A stretch of DNA of 64,000 bases from Acetobacteraceae bacterium (GCA_036489395.1 DASXFW010000086.1:9333-73332); one strand, 5' to 3'; shown: positions 6,946 through 25,504, numbered from the stretch's first letter. Translations and numbers: made by a program. Notes: a model not told the origin generated them from the sequence alone.

Positions 6946-7932
6946 CTAATCCACCGTGCAGCTTTCGAACCCACGCCGGAGCTGCGGACGGTTCAGATTA
7001 CGGCCGATGAACACCAGGCGGCTGGAGCGTTTCTCTCCCTCCTTCCACGGGCCAATGAAATCGCCGTCGGCGATCATGTGTACGGCCTGGAAGGCGAAGC
7101 GGCGGTTCTCTTTCGCGTAGTTCAGGATGCCCTTGGTGCGCAGCAGATCCGGGCCCTTGTCCTGCAGCAGCAGGCCGATCCAGGCATTGAACTTCTCCGG
7201 GTCGATCGGCTTGTCCACTTCGAAGCTGACCGAGGTCACGTCTTCGTTGTGCTCGTGCTCGTCCTCGCCGTTCAGGAAGTCCGGCGCCATCTCCAGGATC
7301 CGCCGCAGGTCGAATGCCTGCCGGCCCAGCACCTGATCGATCGGCAGCGCCGCGCGTTGCGTCCGGTGGATGACGGCAAAGCGGTTGATCGAGCGGATTG
7401 TGCGCTCGACTTCGTCCAGTTCCTCCGGCGTGACGAGGTCGGTCTTGTTCAGCACGATGACGTCGGCGAAGGCGATCTGGTCCTCCGCCTCGTGGCTGTC
7501 CTCCAGCCGCGCGGGCAGGTGCTTCGCATCGACCACGGTGACGATCGCGTCCAGCCGGGTCTTGGCCTTCACGCCCTCATCGATGAAGAACGTCTGCGCC
7601 ACGGGGGCGGGGTTCGCCAGGCCGGTGGTCTCGATGATGATGCCGTCAAACTTGTCGCGCCGTTTCATCAGGCCGCCGACGATGCGGATCAGGTCGCCGC
7701 GCACGGTGCAGCAGATGCAGCCGTTGTTCATCTCGAACACTTCCTCGTCGCTGTCCACGACGAGGTCGTTGTCCACCCCGAGCTCACCGAACTCGTTGAT
7801 CACCACGGCATACTTGCGGCCGTGTTGCTCGGTCAGGATGCGGTTCAGCAGCGTCGTCTTGCCGGCGCCGAGGTAGCCGGTCAGCACCGTCACCGGCACC
7901 AGCCCCACCGTGTCCATGTCTGTGTCTGGCAT
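6946..7932 (-). CDS. COG0523-family G3E GTPase (CobW/YjiA/ZigA-like metallochaperone)
   Basis: Walker A motif LTGYLGAGKTTLLN, the CxCC metal motif NGCICCTVRGD, and a CobW_C-like tail. Confidence 0.9.
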   Translation of the reverse strand: MPDTDMDTVGLVPVTVLTGYLGAGKTTLLNRILTEQHGRKYAVVINEFGELGVDNDLVVDSDEEVFEMNNGCICCTVRGDLIRIVGGLMKRRDKFDGIIIETTGLANPAPVAQTFFIDEGVKAKTRLDAIVTVVDAKHLPARLEDSHEAEDQIAFADVIVLNKTDLVTPEELDEVERTIRSINRFAVIHRTQRAALPIDQVLGRQAFDLRRILEMAPDFLNGEDEHEHNEDVTSVSFEVDKPIDPEKFNAWIGLLLQDKGPDLLRTKGILNYAKENRRFAFQAVHMIADGDFIGPWKEGEKRSSRLVFIGRNLNRPQLRRGFESCTVD

Positions 7933-8094
7933 CTGCCGTCACTCCACGTTCTTGTGCATTGAGGCGGAATATAGGGGCGCGGGGCCCGATCAGCCACCGG
8001 GGCGGCGAAGGAAGGCCGGTACTTCGCCCCGGACCCCGCCAAGAGGCAGCTCCGCCCTTGGTAGGTTTCAGAGCGGAGCCCTGACCTTGCCTTG

Positions 8095-9207
8095 CTACTC
8101 CGCCGGCCCGGACAGCACCTCGCGCCGCAGGTTGGCCAGGCGGGCGGCGATGAGCGGTGCATCGAATGCCTGCGCGCGGGCGCGGCCGGCTTCCGCCATT
8201 GCCGCGCGGCGTGCCGGATCGCCGACCAGCGAGCGGATCGCCGCCGCCACCGCCGCCGGATCGTCCGGATCGACATAGACCGCGGCGTCGCCGGCCACTT
8301 CGCGCAGCCCACCGCGGGGGGAGCAAACCAGCGCAGCCCCGCTCGCCATCGCCTCCAGGGCGACCAGGCCGAACGGCTCCTGCCAGCGGCTGGGCACCAC
8401 GACGATCGCCGCGCGTGCCATTGCGTCCAGCACGAAGGCGCGGTCGCGATAGCCGATGGCGCGCACGCCGGAGCCCTCCGTGGCGACGCGGACGATGCGG
8501 GTGAACTCGGTGTCCGGGCTGTTCACGCGGAAGCGGTCCGCGCCGATCATCTCCGCGCGCCAGCCGGGAAGGTGCGGCATGGCCTGGAGGCAGGCGGCGA
8601 CGAATACGTCGGGGCCCTTTTCCGGAACAACGCGGCCGGCATAGAGGATAAGGCGTTCACGCGGCTGTGGAGCGGGCAGGGCCGCGAGGTCGATCGCGTT
8701 CGGCAGCACGACGGGGGAGCGCGCCGGGCCGGGGACGCCATCGAGCAGACGGCGACGGAGATATTCGGACACGACGACGACGCGGGTGAGCCGTTGGAGC
8801 ATGCGCGCGCGTCCCCCCGCGGTGGTGGCCTGGCGCATGCCTTGCGGGTCGTTATGCAGAAACAACAGAATATGGGCGTGTGGCAGGCGGCGGGCGAGCC
8901 AGAGGGCGAGCTCGGGGCGGTTATGCACCTCAATCAGCGCCGGTTTGGCGCGCCACAGCGTCCACAGCAGCGCGGCGCCGTAGCGGATGTTGACGTTGCC
9001 CGGGAACCAGAAGGCGGGATGGACGGGGTGGAACGGCACGCCCGGGAAGGTAGGGGCGTTCTGCGGCCCGCCGATGACCAGCGGGCGGAAGCCGGGGGCG
9101 CGGACCAGGAGCTGGACCATGCTGCCGACCGCTCCGGCAAAGCCGGATGCGAACCCTTCGTTCGGCGGCAGGATCGTCGCAACGAGGGGCGCGGGAGGGG
9201 ATGGCAT
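8095..9207 (-). CDS. Glycosyltransferase, GT-B fold, family 4 (GT1-type)
   Basis: ORF 8095..9324 trimmed to MPSPPAPLVATILPP... at 9207. The C-terminal domain carries VVPSRWQEPFGLVALEAMASGAALVCSPRGGLREV, an EX7E-type motif. Confidence 0.85.
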   Translation of the reverse strand: MPSPPAPLVATILPPNEGFASGFAGAVGSMVQLLVRAPGFRPLVIGGPQNAPTFPGVPFHPVHPAFWFPGNVNIRYGAALLWTLWRAKPALIEVHNRPELALWLARRLPHAHILLFLHNDPQGMRQATTAGGRARMLQRLTRVVVVSEYLRRRLLDGVPGPARSPVVLPNAIDLAALPAPQPRERLILYAGRVVPEKGPDVFVAACLQAMPHLPGWRAEMIGADRFRVNSPDTEFTRIVRVATEGSGVRAIGYRDRAFVLDAMARAAIVVVPSRWQEPFGLVALEAMASGAALVCSPRGGLREVAGDAAVYVDPDDPAAVAAAIRSLVGDPARRAAMAEAGRARAQAFDAPLIAARLANLRREVLSGPAE

Positions 9208-18897: not shown

Positions 18898-20070
18898 CTA
18901 CAGCCCGGCTTGTTCCAGCCGCAGGATCGCCCTCGCACAGGCCTGGGCGCGCGGCACCAGGCTGTCGATCCGCAGGAATTCGTCCGGACTGTGTGCCTTG
19001 CCGCCGACCGGACCGACCGCGCAGATGGTTGGCGCACCGACCCCGGCCGTGAAACCGGAATCCGCACAGCCGCCGGTGAACTCGCCGTCTGTCTGGAACC
19101 CGGTGTCCGCCGCCGCGGCCACATAGATCTCGAACAACCGTTTGGCGGTGGGCGTCTGCGTCAGCGGCAGGAACTCGCCCTTGATCGTCAGCTCCGTCCT
19201 GGTGCCGGGGACGTAGCTGCGCTCGATGATCGCGCCGATGCGCGCCATGATGTCGTCCTTGTCCTCCGGCTGCACGTAGCGGAGGTCGATCTGCCCCTCG
19301 GCCCAGGGCGCGACGGTGTTGACGCTCTGCCCGCCGCCGACCAGGCCGACGTTCAGTGTGATGCCGCGTTCCAGGTCGGTCAGCGCGTGGATCGCCTGGA
19401 TCTTGCGGGCGAGTTCCTCGATGGCGCTGATGCCGTCGGTGAACGCGCCGCCGGAATGCGCCGCCTTGCCGGTGATGCGGAAGGCCGAGAACACGCCGCC
19501 CTTGCGCCCGGTCACCACGTTGCCGGAGACGCGGCCGGGTTCGCTGTTGAACACGGCGCGGGCGCGGCGGGCCTCGTTCTCGATCACCGCGCGGCCTTCG
19601 GGGCTGCCGATCTCCTCGTCGCCGGTGAACAAGCCGAGCAGGGGAGCGGGCGAGCCGCCGAATTTGGCAAAGGCGGCGAGGACGAAGCAGTTCATCACCA
19701 GCCCCGCCTTCATGTCGGCCACGCCGGGGCCATAGGCGACGCCGTCACGGATCGTGAATGGGCGGCGCGATGCCTCGCCGTCGGGAAAGACGGTGTCGCG
19801 ATGCCCCATCAGCATGACGTGGCCGCCGGCATTGCCGGCCGGCCCGTCCCAGGGGACGGAGGCGCGCAGGCAGTCGCCGTGCTTCTGCTGGCGCAGCGTC
19901 TCAACCGGAATGCCCTGTGCGGCCATGAAGCGCTGCACCACCGCGCCGACCGCGTCGATGCCGGGCTTGTTGTAACTGCCGCTGTCGGTATCGACCATTT
20001 CGCGCAGCATCGCGACCATCGCGCTTTGCTGGGTGGCGAGCCAAGCGGTGATGTCGGCTTCGGTGCTCAT
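18898..20070 (-). CDS. M20-family metallopeptidase (carboxypeptidase G2 / glutamate carboxypeptidase-like)
   Basis: ORF 18898..20124 trimmed to MSTEADITAWL... at 20070. Motifs: LMGHRDTVF, GPGVADMKAG, FTGDEEIGSPEG. Confidence 0.85.
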   Translation of the reverse strand: MSTEADITAWLATQQSAMVAMLREMVDTDSGSYNKPGIDAVGAVVQRFMAAQGIPVETLRQQKHGDCLRASVPWDGPAGNAGGHVMLMGHRDTVFPDGEASRRPFTIRDGVAYGPGVADMKAGLVMNCFVLAAFAKFGGSPAPLLGLFTGDEEIGSPEGRAVIENEARRARAVFNSEPGRVSGNVVTGRKGGVFSAFRITGKAAHSGGAFTDGISAIEELARKIQAIHALTDLERGITLNVGLVGGGQSVNTVAPWAEGQIDLRYVQPEDKDDIMARIGAIIERSYVPGTRTELTIKGEFLPLTQTPTAKRLFEIYVAAAADTGFQTDGEFTGGCADSGFTAGVGAPTICAVGPVGGKAHSPDEFLRIDSLVPRAQACARAILRLEQAGL

Positions 20071-20488
20071 GGTCCTGTCTCCGGGCGCGGTCGTGGCCGG
20101 CGGGTAACAGAACCGGGCGGCCAATGCCAGCTTGCCGGCCGGTCGTGGCGGGTCAGTCGCGCGGTCAATAACATTGTTTTGTTACGTACCGGCGGTGCCA
20201 GGAGGCAACCGTTCGTCAACCCGTCCTATAGTGACGGCTGGGGAAGCCGCTGGCGCCCTGCTGGGAAAGCCCCGGCAAGGCGCCGGACGAACCTGGAGCG
20301 TGACAGCGGCGATAACACGATGAGGTGAACATGTCAGTATTAACGAAAGGCAACGCGGTATTAGTGGCTCATCCGACCTCAATGATTTGCAAAAAAGTTC
20401 TCACGGTCAAGCGCCACCGAGCTGAGTCTCAGACTGAGGAACGGGTCTCCATGGGAGGAGCAAAAATGGCCGGAAGAACGGCAGATAT

Positions 20489-20534
20489 TTCCGAACTACA
20501 ACAGGATTCCGAATTGACGGTAAGATAACGTCAA
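20489..20534 (+). promoter_or_regulatory. Motif cluster in the AT-rich leader: direct repeat TTCCGAA (20489-20495, 20507-20513) abutting the dyad TTGACG-N9-CGTCAA (20514-20534)
   Basis: Read directly from tttccgaactacaacaggattccgaattgacggtaagataacgtcaaatg. It lies about 115-160 nt upstream of the peptide ATG. I cannot define a convincing -10 element. Confidence 0.25.
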
Positions 20535-20580
20535 ATGAACGATAAAAAATCCTCAACATGGAATCATTGTCCTCACACAA

Positions 20581-20602
20581 GCGAGAGGGATGGTTCTCTC
20601 GC
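20581..20602 (+). promoter_or_regulatory. 7-bp-stem hairpin/dyad in the leader of the repeat-peptide gene
   Basis: The sequence is gcgagag-ggatggtt-ctctcgc, ending 48 nt upstream of the ATG at 20650. Confidence 0.3.
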
Positions 20603-20649
20603 AATGTAAGAAACCAGACGCAAGTTACTCGAAGGAAGGGATCCGAACA

Positions 20650-20922
20650 ATGCTTCAGTCAAACTCCTCAGTAGTTGTGAGCACCGTGCGCCTGGGCGGC
20701 CTCGCCCCGACCCTGAAGCCGGCGGTTAGCACCGTGCGCCTGGGCGGCCTCGCCCCGACCCTGAAGCCGGCGGCCAGCACCGTGCGCCTGGGCGGCCTCG
20801 CCCCGACCCTGAAGCCGGCGGTCAGCACTGTGCGCCTGGGCGGCCTCGCCCCGAGCCTGAAGCCGGCGGTCAGCACCGTTCGCCTGGGCGGCCTCGCCCC
20901 GACCCTGAAGCCGGCTCGCTGA
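20650..20922 (+). CDS. 90-aa tandem-repeat peptide: MLQSNSSVVV + 5 x (STVRLGGLAPTLKPAV-like 16-mer)
   Basis: This is the in-frame ATG inside ORF 20590..20922, with GAAGGAAGGG ending about 9 nt upstream. The differences between repeat copies are mostly synonymous in this frame (see findings). A stop and a hairpin follow. Confidence 0.55.
   Translation: MLQSNSSVVVSTVRLGGLAPTLKPAVSTVRLGGLAPTLKPAASTVRLGGLAPTLKPAVSTVRLGGLAPSLKPAVSTVRLGGLAPTLKPAR
20680..20919 (+). repeat. Tandem repeat, 5 x 48 bp, head-to-tail with no spacers
   Basis: The unit is agcaccgtgcgcctgggcggcctcgccccgaccctgaagccggcggtt. Copies lie at 20680, 20728, 20776, 20824 and 20872, each with at most 4 differences from copy 1. Confidence 0.97.
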
Positions 20923-20955
20923 TCTCAAATCAGCGTCAGACTTCGGCCAGAAGTG

Positions 20956-20982
20956 TTGGACCGGCGCTTTGCGCCGGTCCAA
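20956..20982 (+). terminator. GC-rich hairpin followed by a T-rich tract between the peptide gene and the next gene (attenuator/terminator candidate)
   Basis: The sequence is ttggaccggcgc-ttt-gcgccggtccaa, followed by gttgtttctg. It begins 34 nt after the TGA. Confidence 0.4.
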
Positions 20983-21010
20983 GTTGTTTCTGCCGTTGGG
21001 GAGGAACTCT

Positions 21011-21829
21011 TTGAGCACGATCGTCATGCCCGTAGCGACAGCGGCGCCTGAACTGACCAAGACGCCGCTGGTCACCTTCCACCGCTTCACAGCAGGTGCC
21101 CGCCTGCCGGAAAGAGCCGACCGGTCCGCCGCCGGCTCGTTGCCAACCCGTGCCTTCCGCTACTGTGTTCCATCGACCAGCGCCGCAGCCTACGGCTACT
21201 ATGTGTTCCCTCCAATCGGGTTCAGCGTGATCTGGGACGGCCACGAGATCATGTGGACATGGGATGGCGCCGCCGATTGGCTGCCGCTCACCAACACCCA
21301 GTTCCCCGGCTTCGATGAGGAGTTCCGCGCTGCGGCGCCCGAGGCGATTCAGGAGTGGGGGCCGCCTTTCCTTGCGGCGTTGCAGGAGCCTGGCCTGCTG
21401 CAGGTCTGGACCGGCCTCGTCGCTCGCACTGCGCCTGGCTGGAGTCTGCTTGTGCGCGCGCCGGCGAACCTGCCACGCAGCGGCGCCTACGAACTGTTTG
21501 AGGGCATCATCGAGACCGATCACTGGTTCGGTCCGCTGATCACTAACATGCGGCTGACCAAGACCGACGTGCCGATCGACTTCCGGGCCGACTTTCCGCT
21601 GCTGCAGGTCCAGCCGATCCCGCGTCACGTATACGACGACGCGGCGCTGAACAATTTCGCCATCGTGCCGGACCTCAGCCAGCTCCGTCAGGAGGATTGG
21701 GACTCCTACTATCAGACCGTCGTGCGTCCGCACCTTCAGGAGCATCGGCTGCGCGGGCAGTATGCGTCAGCGGCTCGCAAGCGGCGCGCCGCGGAGACCG
21801 GTGACAAGAGCGACAGCTCAGACGAGTGA
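21011..21829 (+). CDS. Uncharacterised 272-aa cytoplasmic protein (Trp-rich; possibly a DUF family, which I cannot verify)
   Basis: ORF 20969..21829. The TTG at 21011 sits 6 nt after GGGAGG; the alternative ATG is at 21026. Host-like codon usage is maintained over 270 codons. There is no signal peptide or TM segment. Distinctive strings: YYVFPPIGFSVIWDGHEIMWTWDGAADWLPL and TAPGWSLLVRAPANLPRSGAYELFEGIIETDHWFGPLITNMRL. Confidence 0.7.
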   Translation: MSTIVMPVATAAPELTKTPLVTFHRFTAGARLPERADRSAAGSLPTRAFRYCVPSTSAAAYGYYVFPPIGFSVIWDGHEIMWTWDGAADWLPLTNTQFPGFDEEFRAAAPEAIQEWGPPFLAALQEPGLLQVWTGLVARTAPGWSLLVRAPANLPRSGAYELFEGIIETDHWFGPLITNMRLTKTDVPIDFRADFPLLQVQPIPRHVYDDAALNNFAIVPDLSQLRQEDWDSYYQTVVRPHLQEHRLRGQYASAARKRRAAETGDKSDSSDE

Positions 21830-21830
21830 T

Positions 21831-24011
21831 CTACACTACGTCCGGCGTTTCGTAGCTCTCGACCGCCACTGCGGGTGCCAGAGCGGAGTTGCTGTCACGC
21901 TCCGGCACGCCGGCGAGACGCAGGCCTTCAGCGTACACCTCACGGTCCACGCGGCGAACGAAAGCTGTTGTCGCCAGGAACGACTCGATGGTGAAGTCTG
22001 GCTCGATCGCGAGGAGCCGGTTGCGCACTGTCGTCTGTTCCTGCGAGCGGCCGGCATGGCCGAGCGCTGCCAGGTACGGCTTGCAAGGTGCGGAGAACGA
22101 CGAGTTCATCTCGCTGACCGATCGCCCGATCACCACCGCTGACTCATAGTCTCGCTTCATCAGTGCCACGTTGATCAGCGTAGTGTCGTAGATGAACGCG
22201 TGCGGATCGAGCGGCGATAGCTTCTTGTAGCGGGTCACGCGACGTTCCGCTTCTTCCCAGTCACCCAGATAGCAGTAAGCGGCGCCGGACAGGTTCCAGG
22301 CCATCGCCAGGTTCGGATTGAGCGATAGCGCGCGTTCGTGCAGCGCGAGCGCCTCCTGCAGCCTGCGGTGCAGGAACGCACGCACATGGCCAGCGATTGT
22401 CAGTGCGCGCGCGTCGAATGGGTCGAGCACGATGGCGCGTTCTGCCAGAGCGCCAGCTTGTTCCATCGTCGCGCGTGGATCATCCGTCCAGCCCTGGCCG
22501 ACCAGGAAGACGTGCCAGTAGGCGTACCAGGCATAGGCGGAGGCGTAGTCCGGTTCCAACGCGATGGCATGCGCGAGATGCTCGCCTGCAAGCATGAACT
22601 GGCTGTGCTCCATGCGCCCGAGCAATGGAATGGCGCGCAGCATCAGATCGTAGGCGGTGGAATCGATCGGCGGGCGGGTGGCGCTGCGTTGCGCCTCGAT
22701 CAGCAGGATCTCCGGGTCGATCTGCGCGACCACTTCGGATGCGATCTCGTCCTGGAGCGACAGCAGATCGTTGGACTGGCGGTCGAAGCGGCGGGCCCAC
22801 ACCACCTGGCTGCCGGCGCGCAGATCGAGCAGGCGCACGGTGATGCGCAGCCGGTTGCGTACGCGCTGGATCGAGCCGTCCACCAGGAAGTCGATGCCGA
22901 ATGTGCGGCGGATCGCGGTCTCGTCGCGCGATTCGGCGGCGAACCGGCTGAGCGAGCTGGATGACACGACGAACATCCAGCGGAAGCGGGCGAGCGCGGT
23001 GGTGATCTCCTCGGCGAGGCCGGGGGCGAGATGCGCCTCTTCCTCGTTCACGCCGACAAGCTGCATCGGCATGACACCGACATGTGCGCCGCCGCGAGCG
23101 TTGCGCAGGTCCTGCTTGGGTTCCAGGACCGCCACGGGTTCGTCGATTGGCTCGGGGATCGGCGGCGCCGCGCGGTTCGCGGCGTCGGCCGATGAGGCTT
23201 GCTCAGGCTGCGGCTGCGATTGCGGGCGCACCGGAATGCGGCTGCCATAGGGGCCGCGAATCTCCGCCAGCAGCTTCTGCGTCTCCTGCGACGGCGCGGC
23301 ATCGAGCAGATCCGCCAACACGGCACGGCAGCGGTCGTAGGCCTGGATCGCCATGCCGCGTTCGCCGCGGGCGGCATGGGCGCGCATCAGCGCCCGCCAG
23401 GCGCCCTCATGCGCGCGGTCGATCTGCAACAGGCGCTGGGCGGCGGGGATGGCGGCTTCCGGCTCGGCCGAGTCGCGCAACAGCGCCTCGGCCACATTGC
23501 GGGCGCGATCGCGCAGCCGCTCGCGTTCCGTGGTCAGCCAGGCGTCGAACGTGGGGTCGATGCCGTCCAGATCCTCCAGCAGGTCGCCGTCCAGCAGGGA
23601 CAGCGAGGCGGGCTGGTCGGTGGTGGCGCGCATTACCTCCTCGACGTCCACCCAGACGATGCCGGGCTTCAGCGAGAGGTGGTCGCGGGTGACCTGGATG
23701 ATCTCGGCGCCGGCGGGGGCCAATGTTTCCAGGAGCCGATGAATTTCCTGCCGCAGCGAGGCCCTGGCTTGCTCCTCCGGGCGGCGGCTCCATAATAATT
23801 CCGCCAGCCGGCCGCGCAGCGCGGGGCGTGGATTGGACAGGGCGATGACGGCGAGCAGCGCTCGGGTCTTGCGCCCGGCGGGGAGAACGTTCTCGCTGGT
23901 GATCGTCCAGGCTTCCATCTGGCCGATCAGACGCAAGCGGAGCACCACCTGCCCCGAGGGGCTGGGCGGCGTGACGTTGGGAGTGGGCCGGGTGGTGGTG
24001 CCTGCCATCAT
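21831..24011 (-). CDS. SARP/BTAD-family transcriptional activator fused to a TPR-containing C-terminal region
   Basis: 726 aa. The N-terminal winged-helix region is LRLIGQMEAWT...GRKTRALLAVIALSNP...RLAELLWSRRPEEQARASLRQEIHRL. The BTAD region is ...AWRALMRAHAARGERGMAIQAYDRCRAVLADLLDAAPSQETQKLLAEI. The C-terminal half has TPR-like repeats (…ALALHERALSLNPNLAMAWNLSGAAYCYLGDWEEAE…). Its stop lies 1 nt from the stop of the convergent 272-aa gene. Confidence 0.85.
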   Translation of the reverse strand: MMAGTTTRPTPNVTPPSPSGQVVLRLRLIGQMEAWTITSENVLPAGRKTRALLAVIALSNPRPALRGRLAELLWSRRPEEQARASLRQEIHRLLETLAPAGAEIIQVTRDHLSLKPGIVWVDVEEVMRATTDQPASLSLLDGDLLEDLDGIDPTFDAWLTTERERLRDRARNVAEALLRDSAEPEAAIPAAQRLLQIDRAHEGAWRALMRAHAARGERGMAIQAYDRCRAVLADLLDAAPSQETQKLLAEIRGPYGSRIPVRPQSQPQPEQASSADAANRAAPPIPEPIDEPVAVLEPKQDLRNARGGAHVGVMPMQLVGVNEEEAHLAPGLAEEITTALARFRWMFVVSSSSLSRFAAESRDETAIRRTFGIDFLVDGSIQRVRNRLRITVRLLDLRAGSQVVWARRFDRQSNDLLSLQDEIASEVVAQIDPEILLIEAQRSATRPPIDSTAYDLMLRAIPLLGRMEHSQFMLAGEHLAHAIALEPDYASAYAWYAYWHVFLVGQGWTDDPRATMEQAGALAERAIVLDPFDARALTIAGHVRAFLHRRLQEALALHERALSLNPNLAMAWNLSGAAYCYLGDWEEAERRVTRYKKLSPLDPHAFIYDTTLINVALMKRDYESAVVIGRSVSEMNSSFSAPCKPYLAALGHAGRSQEQTTVRNRLLAIEPDFTIESFLATTAFVRRVDREVYAEGLRLAGVPERDSNSALAPAVAVESYETPDVV

Positions 24012-24081
24012 CGCGTCATCGTCGCTGCTGTCTCATCTGTATCGCAAATTGGATAAGCACGCCAAGACTTATAATCTCGTT

Positions 24082-25467
24082 TCATATCGCGGCTTCGGCG
24101 AAAATTTGACGCAGATCCTGGTTCCAGGGGCCGTGGAAGCGGTCCAGCCAGTGCTCCGCCTGGGTTGGACTACCTTCCACGATCGATTGGAGGGGACTCA
24201 GATAGACCGATTCATCGTGACCGGCGGTATCAAAGCGGGCCCGCGCTACGAGACCGTCACGCGCGATTGCCACAAGATCCCGTGATAATTCCCGCAGCGT
24301 ACCGTCCCGCCAGGGCAGGTTCGCCGCCAGCCCCTCGCGCGGGACGGCGGCACGCAGGGCCACCGCGTCGGCCCAGCCGGCGCCGCGAAGCAATGCCTCG
24401 GCGGCGGCCAGCGCTGCATTGTCGTACAGCAGGCCGACCCATAGGGCTGACTGCGCCAGCATCATTCCGGCGCTGCCGGCGTCGGCGCCGCGCATCTCCA
24501 GGAAGCGTTTCAGGCGGACATCGGTGAACACCGTGGTCATGTGGTCGGCGAAGTCGCCGACCGTGGCCTGAATGCCCGCCAGGCTGGGCAGGCGGCCCTG
24601 CATGAAGTCGCGGAAGCCGCTGCCGGCCACGTCGATATACTCGCCATCGCGATAGACGAAGTACATGGGCACCTCGTCGATCAGCCACCCGGCGTAGCGT
24701 TCGAAACCGAACCCGTCCTCGAACATCACCGGCGGAATGCCGGAGCGCGCGTTGTCGGTGTCGGTCCAGACATGCGCGCGGTAGGAGAGGAAGCCGTTCG
24801 GCCGGCCCTCGGTGAATGGCGAGTTGGCGAACAGCGCGGTGGCCAGCGGCTGCAGCAGCAGCGACAGGCGCAGCTTGCGCACCATGTCGGCTTCCGCGCC
24901 GTAGTCCAGGTTCACCTGCACCGTGCAGGTGCGGGTCATCATATCGAGGCCCATCGTGCCGACCAGCGGCATGTAGCGGCGCATGATGGCGTAGCGGCTC
25001 TTCGGCATCCACGGCATCTCGGCCCGGGTCGCCATGGGGTGGAAGCCGAGCGGCGCGAAGCCCATGCGCAGGTCGCGCGCCACGCTGCGCACCTGGTCGA
25101 AATGGGTTGCCAACTCGTCGCGCGTGTCGTGCAGCGTTGCTACCGGCGCACCGGACAGTTCGAGCTGTCCGGCAGGCTCGAGGGAGATCGCTGCGCCGCC
25201 CTGCTTCAGGCCGATGGTGTGGCCGTGGTCGTCGATCGGTGTCGCATCGTAGCGCTGCATGCCGGCCAGCATGTCGCGGATCGACGCGGGATGGCCGTCG
25301 GCCGGTTCGTACGGCGGCGTCTTCAGGTCGTTGTCACGAAACCCGAATTTCTCATGCTCTGTGCCGATGCGCCACTGATCGCGAGGCTTGCTGCCGGCGG
25401 CGATGTAATCGGCAAGCTGGCGAACCGACGTGATCGGAGTCGCGTCGGTGTCTCCGGGGTTGGACAT
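24082..25467 (-). CDS. gshA: Glutamate-cysteine ligase, plant/alphaproteobacterial type (GCS2)
   Basis: ORF 24082..25503 trimmed to MSNPGDTDA... at 25467. RIGTEHEKFGF and the overall length are typical of the plant-type GCL found in alphaproteobacteria. Confidence 0.9.
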   Translation of the reverse strand: MSNPGDTDATPITSVRQLADYIAAGSKPRDQWRIGTEHEKFGFRDNDLKTPPYEPADGHPASIRDMLAGMQRYDATPIDDHGHTIGLKQGGAAISLEPAGQLELSGAPVATLHDTRDELATHFDQVRSVARDLRMGFAPLGFHPMATRAEMPWMPKSRYAIMRRYMPLVGTMGLDMMTRTCTVQVNLDYGAEADMVRKLRLSLLLQPLATALFANSPFTEGRPNGFLSYRAHVWTDTDNARSGIPPVMFEDGFGFERYAGWLIDEVPMYFVYRDGEYIDVAGSGFRDFMQGRLPSLAGIQATVGDFADHMTTVFTDVRLKRFLEMRGADAGSAGMMLAQSALWVGLLYDNAALAAAEALLRGAGWADAVALRAAVPREGLAANLPWRDGTLRELSRDLVAIARDGLVARARFDTAGHDESVYLSPLQSIVEGSPTQAEHWLDRFHGPWNQDLRQIFAEAAI

Positions 25468-25504
25468 GTTCTTCCCAGGCGTCTCGGGTTCGTCGAACAG
25501 CAAG

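Follow-up and report, generated by a model that had tools for sequence, protein, structure and literature searches.

What does a bacterium gain from a small gene that encodes nearly the same 16 residues five times over, followed by a hairpin and the gene for an uncharacterised protein? The question is raised by a locus in a 64,000-nucleotide stretch of DNA from an Acetobacteraceae bacterium (GCA_036489395.1 DASXFW010000086.1:9333-73332), referred to below as the window, with positions counted from its first letter. An original prediction had proposed an undescribed peptide-maturation locus of four elements, and all four are in place: a repeat-peptide (putative precursor) gene at 20650–20922 (plus strand, an open reading frame [ORF] of 90 codons), an intergenic GC hairpin with a 12-bp stem and a T-rich tail at 20956–20992 (plus strand, stem-loop 20956–20982), the gene for a 272-residue protein matching Pfam DUF6065 at 21011–21829 (plus strand), and, at 21831–24011 on the minus strand, the gene for a 726-residue regulator with the Pfam domains of a SARP (winged helix-turn-helix [wHTH] and BTAD) and tetratricopeptide repeats (TPRs). 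The last two genes are convergent, their stop codons 1 nt apart. Having examined about 170 related loci overall, we favor, at a rough probability of 0.55, the view that these genes constitute a new leaderless, multi-core peptide-maturation or signalling cassette, self-contained and vertically ancient, in which each precursor unit would carry its own recognition motif, the DUF6065 protein would modify or cleave the units, the hairpin would set the ratio of the two products, the end product would be small, and the cassette would have a cognate sensor-regulator.

Results

The closest counterparts of this locus, called window-like loci here, number 84 (L001–L084) and encode DUF6065 proteins 65–82% identical to that of the window (a scan of one genome per species gave 80 at 65–78%); close homologues of the protein, 1911 at E ≤ 0.001, come from Acetobacteraceae and Rhodopila genomes. 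The original prediction stood to fall if homologues of the 272-residue protein proved unlinked to repeat ORFs elsewhere, and a same-strand repeat-peptide gene lies upstream of DUF6065 in about 79 of the 84 window-like loci (tblastn or motif matches). These repeat ORFs are found 90–220 bp upstream of DUF6065, with anywhere between 2 and more than 40 units of 16–20 residues in tandem and the consensus D-A-G-K-V-R-L-G-G-[F/Y/C/L/M/V]-A-P-T-L-A-(P)-T-A. Four relatives at 50–59% identity (Sneathiella, Candidatus Odyssella, and two metagenome-assembled genomes [MAGs]) have upstream ORFs of 47–166 residues with 2–6 units (KVRLGNMSPAF, KVRIGGVAPAF, KVRMGDMSPVF), which often end right past the motif. 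For a more distant sample, a metagenome scan seeded with a clade 35–38% identical to the window protein gave 80 loci. In 75 of these (35–50% identity) the DNA extended 200 bp or more upstream, and a tandem-repeat ORF precedes DUF6065 in at least 62 of the 75, with motifs that include PKVRMGQGDAPAKVVKH, KVQTGGGIISPKVKAH, TEFGGGLIAPAVTAH, VKVEIGNGAIAPRV, RRVRFGGGSAPQV, and GKVQVGGYIKKLPV. DUF6065 is also carried on plasmids of two cultured Rhizobium isolates, and on the one inspected (that of SRDI969) a hypothetical protein with three D-x-G-K-V-H-I-A-N-K-S-P-A-F units is followed by DUF6065 and then by a transporter of the major facilitator superfamily (MFS). Adjacency of the peptide and DUF6065 genes has therefore held from 82% to about 35% protein identity. 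Because the arrangement recurs in most of the related loci examined, it is far beyond chance, and the peptide, DUF6065, and BTAD/TPR regulator genes make up a truly linked cassette.

The 90-residue product of the peptide gene consists of a 10-residue N-terminus (MLQSNSSVVV) and five 16-residue units (STVRLGGLAPTLKPAV), the last of which ends in KPAR before the stop. At the DNA level this is a tandem array with a 48-bp period and 4.9 copies (20680–20915, plus strand; Tandem Repeats Finder score 437, 95% matches), each 48-bp unit encoding the core motif VRLGGLAP(T/S)L, and a unit-by-unit listing shows the differences among units to be mostly synonymous. A Shine-Dalgarno-like GAAGGAAGGGA can be read at 20631–20641 (plus strand), and an alignment of 60 loci gives the consensus GAA.GG 8–10 nt 5' of the ATG. 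The ATG at 20650 is further supported because homologous peptides begin with an equally short N-terminus (M-L/S-x-F/S..V-x-D-x-G-K-VRLGG). Across homologous loci just 4–17 residues, with no signal-peptide character, stand before the first unit, and the predicted precursor is in effect leaderless. Each unit joins a motif to a variable spacer, and the motif could act as an in-unit recognition sequence; relatives share the form (D-x-x)-[K/R/T]-V-x-φ-G-x..-P-x-φ, repeated 2 to more than 40 times.

Among 1007 instances of the 11-residue core from 84 loci, representing 561 distinct 33-mers, mean entropy at codon positions 1, 2, and 3 was 0.35, 0.31, and 1.30, respectively, the first two values being constrained in advance because instances were picked by their amino-acid motif. 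The core motif was absent from the opposite strand at all 84 loci. One peptide motif thus persists through heavy third-position change and through genomes of very different G+C content, which is what purifying selection on a protein produces, and we conclude from this pattern that the repeat ORF is translated. Many of the loci are long-read MAGs in which indel errors split the repeat ORF into frames (L012, L019, and L051) and arrays may be collapsed, so copy numbers are approximate. Automated annotation evidently mishandles repeat arrays, and the peptide family may have been overlooked for that reason. One public gene call, P0090 (405 residues), is an out-of-frame translation of the repeat (ARFVSVPARLRSRPP...) fused to DUF6065.

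Between the two genes of the window, the hairpin comprises 12 pairs (9 of them GC), a 3-nt loop, and a tail, GTTGTTTCTG, with 6 T in 10 nt; it lies 33 nt past the peptide stop and is the only terminator-like site in 20000–24300. For the 88-nt intergenic region the folding energy is −39.9 kcal/mol (z = −3.75), and 0 of 200 shuffles were as stable. A direct stem search with shuffles at 77 window-like loci showed that the hairpin recurs in the window's clade, placed 40–55 nt past the stop codon of the peptide gene; in 51 of the 77 its stem is perfect over at least 8 bp (shuffled median 6.4). Its core is GACCGGGC..GCCCGGTC, and compensatory variants include GCCGGGCAG..CTGCCCGGC and GAACCGGGTC..GACCCGGTT; the hairpin is a conserved feature of this clade. 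The window hairpin fits the form of an intrinsic terminator or attenuator (a GC stem-loop and a U-run at a conserved position), while the T-rich tails are weak at many window-like loci, and a search against Rfam returned only sub-threshold CRISPR-DR matches on the palindromic hairpin. Its probable role is that of a partial terminator or attenuator, or else of a 3' stabiliser of the peptide transcript.

A small ORF, a hairpin with a T-rich tail, and a gene in succession also recall the attenuator layout of amino-acid operons, in which case the ORF would be a classical leader peptide controlling the hairpin by transcription attenuation and DUF6065 would be the sole functional product. We regard this as very improbable. 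The repeat ORF ranges from 47 to more than 600 residues across loci, the hairpin sits 33–55 nt past the stop with no alternative antiterminator overlapping the ORF, and in distant clades the peptide is kept with a usually very short gap to DUF6065 and no hairpin at all. Leader-peptide attenuation is contradicted by this persistence without a hairpin, together with conservation of the repeat motif over deep divergence at the protein level and not at the RNA level.

The DUF6065 gene begins with a TTG 6 nt past GGGGAGG, a start at which the N-terminus (MST..) agrees with that of homologues. Its product matches Pfam DUF6065 (PF19541) with 60.2 bits (gathering cut-off 26.6, E = 2.8e-16), as do all 24 diverse relatives, and no other Pfam family or NCBIfam model was matched by it. 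Because the score passes the cut-off while only profile positions 84–171 of 236 align, the window protein, on its profile match, belongs to a divergent subfamily. The family comprises 990 clusters at 50% identity in a representative library, and Deinococcus seoulensis encodes a homologue too. In an alignment of 137 sequences at 32–77% identity, which served both for conservation and as AlphaFold2 input, G42, C52, G62, G135, N153, P175, and P196 are invariant down to 32% identity, and R149, E164, E168, D170, Q199, and Q201 are nearly so.

The AlphaFold2 model built on this alignment has a predicted local distance difference test (pLDDT) score of 94 and a predicted template modeling (TM) score of 0.86; a model from a shallow alignment (23 sequences, 65–78% identity) reached a pLDDT of 34 and was discarded. 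When the model was compared with the PDB by Foldseek, the top 50 matches were all trimeric dUTPases (probability 1.00, E = 3e-5 to 1e-3, dUTPase-normalised TM 0.5–0.80), and in BFVD uncharacterised phage proteins came out best (E = 1e-9), followed by viral dUTPases. A dUTPase-like beta-barrel is thus confidently predicted. With a profile of the family, a sequence search of the PDB came back empty up to E = 10, no sub-threshold dUTPase or DCD match appeared in Pfam at the same limit, and hhalign comparisons with E. coli Dut and with a 5-sequence dUTPase alignment were not significant (probability 0.1–0.3%); because profile comparison is not significant, we claim the likeness at the level of fold only. 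One hhalign alignment, with its non-significant probability of 0.3%, is congruent with the fold match: it places LLVR149-x-P-x-N153 of DUF6065 on dUTPase motif II (I-R-P-R-S-G), E-G-I-I-E168-T-D170-x-W-x-G on motif III (P-G-T-I-D-x-D-Y-R-G), and P-L-x-Q199-V-Q-P on motif IV (R-I-A-Q). Features of DUF6065's own are the invariant Cys52, which starts an inserted helix, the invariant Asn153, and a basic C-terminal tail, R-x-G-x-Y-A-x3-R-(K/R)-R-R; no conserved His that could partner Cys52 is present in the 137-sequence alignment. The conservation of polar residues makes an enzyme likely, and by arrangement, predicted fold, and conserved residues we regard DUF6065 as a putative peptide-processing or peptide-modifying enzyme. 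In one MAG (L003) a genuine dut (dUTPase) gene at 7755–8159, which served only to supply a dUTPase sequence, lies about 1 kb 3' of the DUF6065 gene, a position that we take as coincidental.

On a virus-labelled (IMG/VR) contig, L169, two D-x-G-R-I-R/K-I-G-G units are followed by DUF6065, the pair lying at 1413–2433 with a long ORF downstream of it (this is one of two such loci; the other, L170, was not inspected). In view of that locus and the BFVD matches, the predicted fold, and perhaps the cassette, also occurs on phage or prophage DNA.

To place the cassette among its neighbors, the flanking ORFs of all loci, called by a greedy longest-ORF heuristic in high-GC DNA, were clustered and assigned to Pfam, and clusters that were antisense artefacts of the repeat or of TldD (c1, c6, c7, and c13 among them) were ignored. 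A transporter directly follows DUF6065 in distant clades, of the MFS type in 7 and of the EamA type in 4 of 40 loci with downstream DNA, as well as at L086 and on the Rhizobium plasmid. Because the regulator module (see below) and a downstream transporter recur across deep divergence, the ancestral cassette looks like a four-part one of sensor-regulator, repeat peptide, DUF6065, and exporter. The original prediction had seen no exporter in the locus, which is correct for the window's own cassette but does not extend to the distant clades; the window's cassette has lost its exporter or never had one.

The exporters bear on a different account of the pair, in which the repeat product stays intact as a multivalent, disordered ligand, scaffold, or inhibitor (an antitoxin-like "sponge"), with units that each bind one DUF6065 and buffer a nucleotide-handling enzyme of the dUTPase superfamily. 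A small partner encoded first, an enzyme second, and a hairpin favoring the first product would equally give the stoichiometry of a toxin-antitoxin or inhibitor pair; the dUTPase-like fold with equivalents of the phosphate- and water-binding motifs II–IV, the conserved Gly, Pro, and hydrophobic positions of the unit (better suited to a binding epitope than to a reactive site), and a copy number free to vary from 2 to more than 40 would all accord with it. However, a small product destined for export is indicated by the MFS and EamA exporters directly downstream in many clades and by the ligand-sensor regulator, and many of the peptides have just 2 units in 47–60 residues. DUF6065 without an adjoining repeat, as found at some loci, would be lethal or pointless under an antitoxin model, and PADLOC gave no defence or toxin-antitoxin match for the peptide, DUF6065, or the regulator. 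We therefore hold this account to be unlikely.

Other neighbors appear to be matters of lineage. The flanking genes identified in the window are those for an M20 peptidase (18898–20070/20124, minus strand) and a GCS2-type glutamate-cysteine ligase (gshA; 24082–25503, minus strand), both confirmed by Pfam scan, and an MFS transporter. The M20-gshA-rsmE context is rare (4–7 of 61 window-like loci with full flanks), and these genes were rejected as cassette parts and read as local synteny only. The suggestion that the M20 peptidase might supply processing fares no better, since it occupies the slot directly before the peptide gene, divergently, in only 4 of those 61 loci; TldD, upstream and co-directional, does so in 50. 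A non-GDSL lipase lies downstream of DUF6065 in 48 of 82 window-like loci. Both TldD and the lipase were considered as cassette parts and set aside, as they are confined to the window's clade and probably reflect lineage synteny. A role for TldD in peptide trimming is possible.

The regulator qualifies by its domains as SARP-type. Its N-terminal part (wHTH and BTAD, residues ~22–252) matches Pfam BTAD at E = 8.2e-14 and, weakly and below cut-off, Trans_reg_C (E = 0.016), and has weak PDB matches to the SARPs AfsR and EmbR (residues 22–248 against the AfsR SARP domain, E = 0.002); it is followed by a Pro/Ala-rich linker and by a C-terminal module (residues ~305–705) made up of a weakly TolB_N-like stretch and Pfam TPRs. 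Of the loci with full flanks, 20 of 61 window-like and 8 of 14 distant ones have a regulator homologue no more than 5.5 kb away; it is convergent and downstream in the window's clade and usually divergent and upstream elsewhere. Only the C-terminal ~400 residues are conserved across clades. At L162 (4286–6916, minus strand) this module (29% identity, E = 2e-41) stands behind a cNMP-binding domain and a Crp HTH, with a cyclase-like stretch, and at L088 (3648–5438, minus strand) just the module aligns, after some 200 residues without a counterpart in the window regulator. The sensor module, then, recurs beside the pair in varied orientations and with different output domains, which looks like domain shuffling around a dedicated sensor.

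A candidate target lies upstream of the peptide gene, where an alignment of 60 upstream regions revealed a conserved control element of about 60 bp (20510–20568, plus strand) containing a block conserved at 70% or more. The element, ~115–140 nt 5' of the peptide start codon, consists of a perfect 6-bp inverted repeat, TTGACG-N9-CGTCAA (20514–20534), and then an A-rich AACGATAAAAAATCCTCAA..TGGAATCAT. Allowing at most 2 mismatches, the palindrome is found just once in the window. It precedes the peptide gene in 63 of 82 window-like loci regardless of which genes flank the cassette, the background being 10 matches over 729 kb of downstream DNA. No Rfam family matched the element, which could serve as the cassette's operator and promoter or, alternatively, as a 5' untranslated region element.

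With a TPR sensor module that co-occurs with the pair while its output domains vary, one may also imagine that DUF6065 is purely a processing endopeptidase or transpeptidase, with Cys52 as nucleophile, and that the unmodified units, linear or cyclised, are secreted and act as a signal for the regulator to sense, a scheme with analogues in tandem pheromone precursors and RRNPP-type peptide sensing. This possibility, which overlaps our preferred model, would draw on the invariance of Cys52 and its place at a helix N-terminus, on the tandem, identical-unit, leaderless precursor, and on the exporters of distant clades. We nevertheless consider it quite unlikely, as no conserved His partners the Cys, the fold is that of no known peptidase clan (Foldseek gives only dUTPases), and the regulator, as read from its sequence, has neither a predicted membrane segment nor a predicted periplasmic domain, so that a signal would have to re-enter the cell.

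Discussion

We found no account of this system in the full-text literature (DUF6065, PF19541, and related terms) or in curated models, and the expectation that it is undescribed has held up; the locus probably encodes an undescribed pathway making a peptide-derived product. In the maturation cassette that we favor, the small gene would be translated into a leaderless precursor, a string of near-identical units (5 here, 2 to more than 40 elsewhere), each with its own recognition motif, (D-x-x)-[K/R/T]-V-R-φ-G-x-x-[A/S]-P-x-φ. The DUF6065 protein would bind each unit and modify and/or cut it, using Cys52 of the inserted helix along with Arg149, Asn153, Glu168/Asp170, and Gln199, and general peptidases would complete the release of a short product, which in many relatives would be exported by the MFS or EamA transporter encoded directly downstream. 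That the product is small is suggested by the occurrence of these exporters elsewhere. The hairpin would stop most transcripts after the peptide gene, so that substrate exceeds enzyme. The SARP-TPR protein would control the operon, probably through the TTGACG-N9-CGTCAA region, and the ligand of its TolB_N/TPR module may be the product or something related to it.

Several observations weigh against this interpretation. The window's own cassette has no dedicated protease, RiPP recognition element (RRE; RiPP, a peptide made by the ribosome and modified after translation) domain, or exporter, and the regulator adjoins the pair in only about one third of window-like loci. No residue typical of RiPP chemistry (Cys, Ser, Thr, Tyr, Trp, Glu, or Lys) is universally conserved in the unit; family-wide, units share only hydrophobic positions, usually with Gly and Pro, and a Rhizobium unit variant has Ala-Asn in place of Gly-Gly. 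The dUTPase relation is one of fold only, with an aromatic residue in place of the motif I Asp and with motif V absent. Finally, the pairing has exceptions. About 5 of the 84 window-like loci have DUF6065 without an adjoining repeat gene, the Sagittula salina DUF6065 locus shows no clear repeat ORF, and a Sinorhizobium DUF6065 (26% identity) follows a non-repetitive 169-residue protein. The Sagittula and Sinorhizobium exceptions indicate that the pairing marks a large subfamily and not necessarily the whole Pfam family.

The exceptional loci have features of their own. L025, L026, and L029 are among the window-like loci without an array, and in a few TldD is followed directly by DUF6065; L026 (5748–6000) retains the intergenic hairpin, and L025 retains one degenerate unit, AQVRLGAFEP. 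Such loci could reflect recent array loss or assembly collapse. The Sinorhizobium locus (L173, 4384–5597, on plasmid pMl1 of Sinorhizobium medicae) has DUF6065 translationally coupled to the 169-residue hypothetical protein and an S8 serine peptidase gene 1.3 kb downstream; here, at the Pfam family's far end, the partner architecture differs.

A bolder version of the maturation cassette, which we advance only tentatively and think doubtful, is that of a widespread, unrecognised leaderless multi-core system, mainly of Alphaproteobacteria, with a dUTPase-fold enzyme (possibly nucleotide-dependent, with a catalytic Cys) that turns every repeat into a small product, MFS/EamA export of it, and a dedicated TolB_N/TPR receptor to sense it, with varied outputs (SARP, Crp/cNMP, and cyclase-like). 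If true, this would amount to a signalling circuit of Gram-negative bacteria that runs on a peptide-derived product and uses a new maturase fold, and confirmed enzyme chemistry or a confirmed signalling role would make the case for such novelty credible. Even short of this, if DUF6065 acts on the repeats it would represent a new family of ribosomal-peptide maturases with a dUTPase-like fold, along with a new precursor logic in which there is no leader and the recognition motif is repeated with each core. Members of this large family are common in the environment (soil, peat, and rhizosphere Acetobacteraceae, Rhizobium plasmids, and Sneathiella), so a function for DUF6065 would annotate thousands of "hypothetical" gene pairs. 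The TolB_N/TPR module is one of a class of alphaproteobacterial regulators and cyclases that is very abundant and little understood, and a defined cognate ligand would make this class experimentally tractable. Small, at two genes, and carried by the cultured strains Rhodopila globiformis DSM 161 and Rhizobium sp. SRDI969 and WSM4643, the system is directly testable.

Comparison with known systems

The window peptide scores 22.2 bits against the PqqA model (TIGR02107, cut-off 20), and its KPAVSTVRLG resembles the K-P-x-φ-x-D-φ-R-φ-G of the PqqA leader. We rejected this identity because the score is a sum over five weak repeats, no stretch of which passes the threshold alone; the cross-linked Glu-x3-Tyr of PqqA is absent, the window peptide having no Glu or Tyr whatsoever, and the spacers of other loci (D-A-G-K) lose the likeness, which points to chance or a convergent beta-strand motif. 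PqqA is moreover a single peptide of about 23 residues encoded beside pqqBCDE; the flanking genes identified here are those for the M20 peptidase, the GCS2 ligase, and the MFS transporter, with no search aimed specifically at pqqBCDE.

With the trimeric dUTPase/dCTP deaminase superfamily, DUF6065 shares the predicted beta-barrel fold and equivalents of the motif II Arg, motif III Asp, and motif IV Gln, but it differs in some 120 extra residues, including the helix with the invariant Cys and the basic C-terminal tail. Its resemblance to dUTPases extends to the fold and not to the full set of five motifs. A link between a dUTPase-like fold and RiPPs or peptide chemistry was not found in the literature.

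Like the SARPs AfsR and EmbR, the window regulator combines an OmpR-type winged helix and BTAD with TPRs further on, and like pathway-specific SARPs it is encoded next to a putative biosynthetic operon. Unlike typical SARPs, it has an alphaproteobacterial host, and what co-evolves with the cassette is its TolB_N-like and TPR module. The operator type of this regulator is probably atypical as well, since direct heptamer repeats are what SARPs typically bind and the site conserved upstream has the form of an inverted repeat.

The nearest likeness of the cassette as a whole is to multi-core RiPP systems, a comparison that we draw from PMC12186524 and from general knowledge of these classes. In cyanobactins, in fungal dikaritins such as ustiloxin and KexB-processed repeats, and in plant burpitides and lyciumins, as in the cassette, tandem near-identical units each carry a recognition motif (a putative one in the cassette), and a ribosomal precursor of highly variable copy number is encoded beside a maturation gene (likewise putative here). 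In contrast to them, the cassette has no N-terminal leader, and its unit has no universally conserved nucleophilic or aromatic residue. Pfam and NCBIfam scans returned DUF6065 only, with no homologue of a known RiPP enzyme, RRE, or class-defining protease. Given the lack of a class-defining enzyme, an RRE, or a leader, the cassette as predicted belongs to none of the known multi-core RiPP systems. What it shares with RiPP loci in general is their basic plan, a precursor gene coupled on the same strand to a candidate maturation gene, and it has kept this plan from 82% to about 35% identity.

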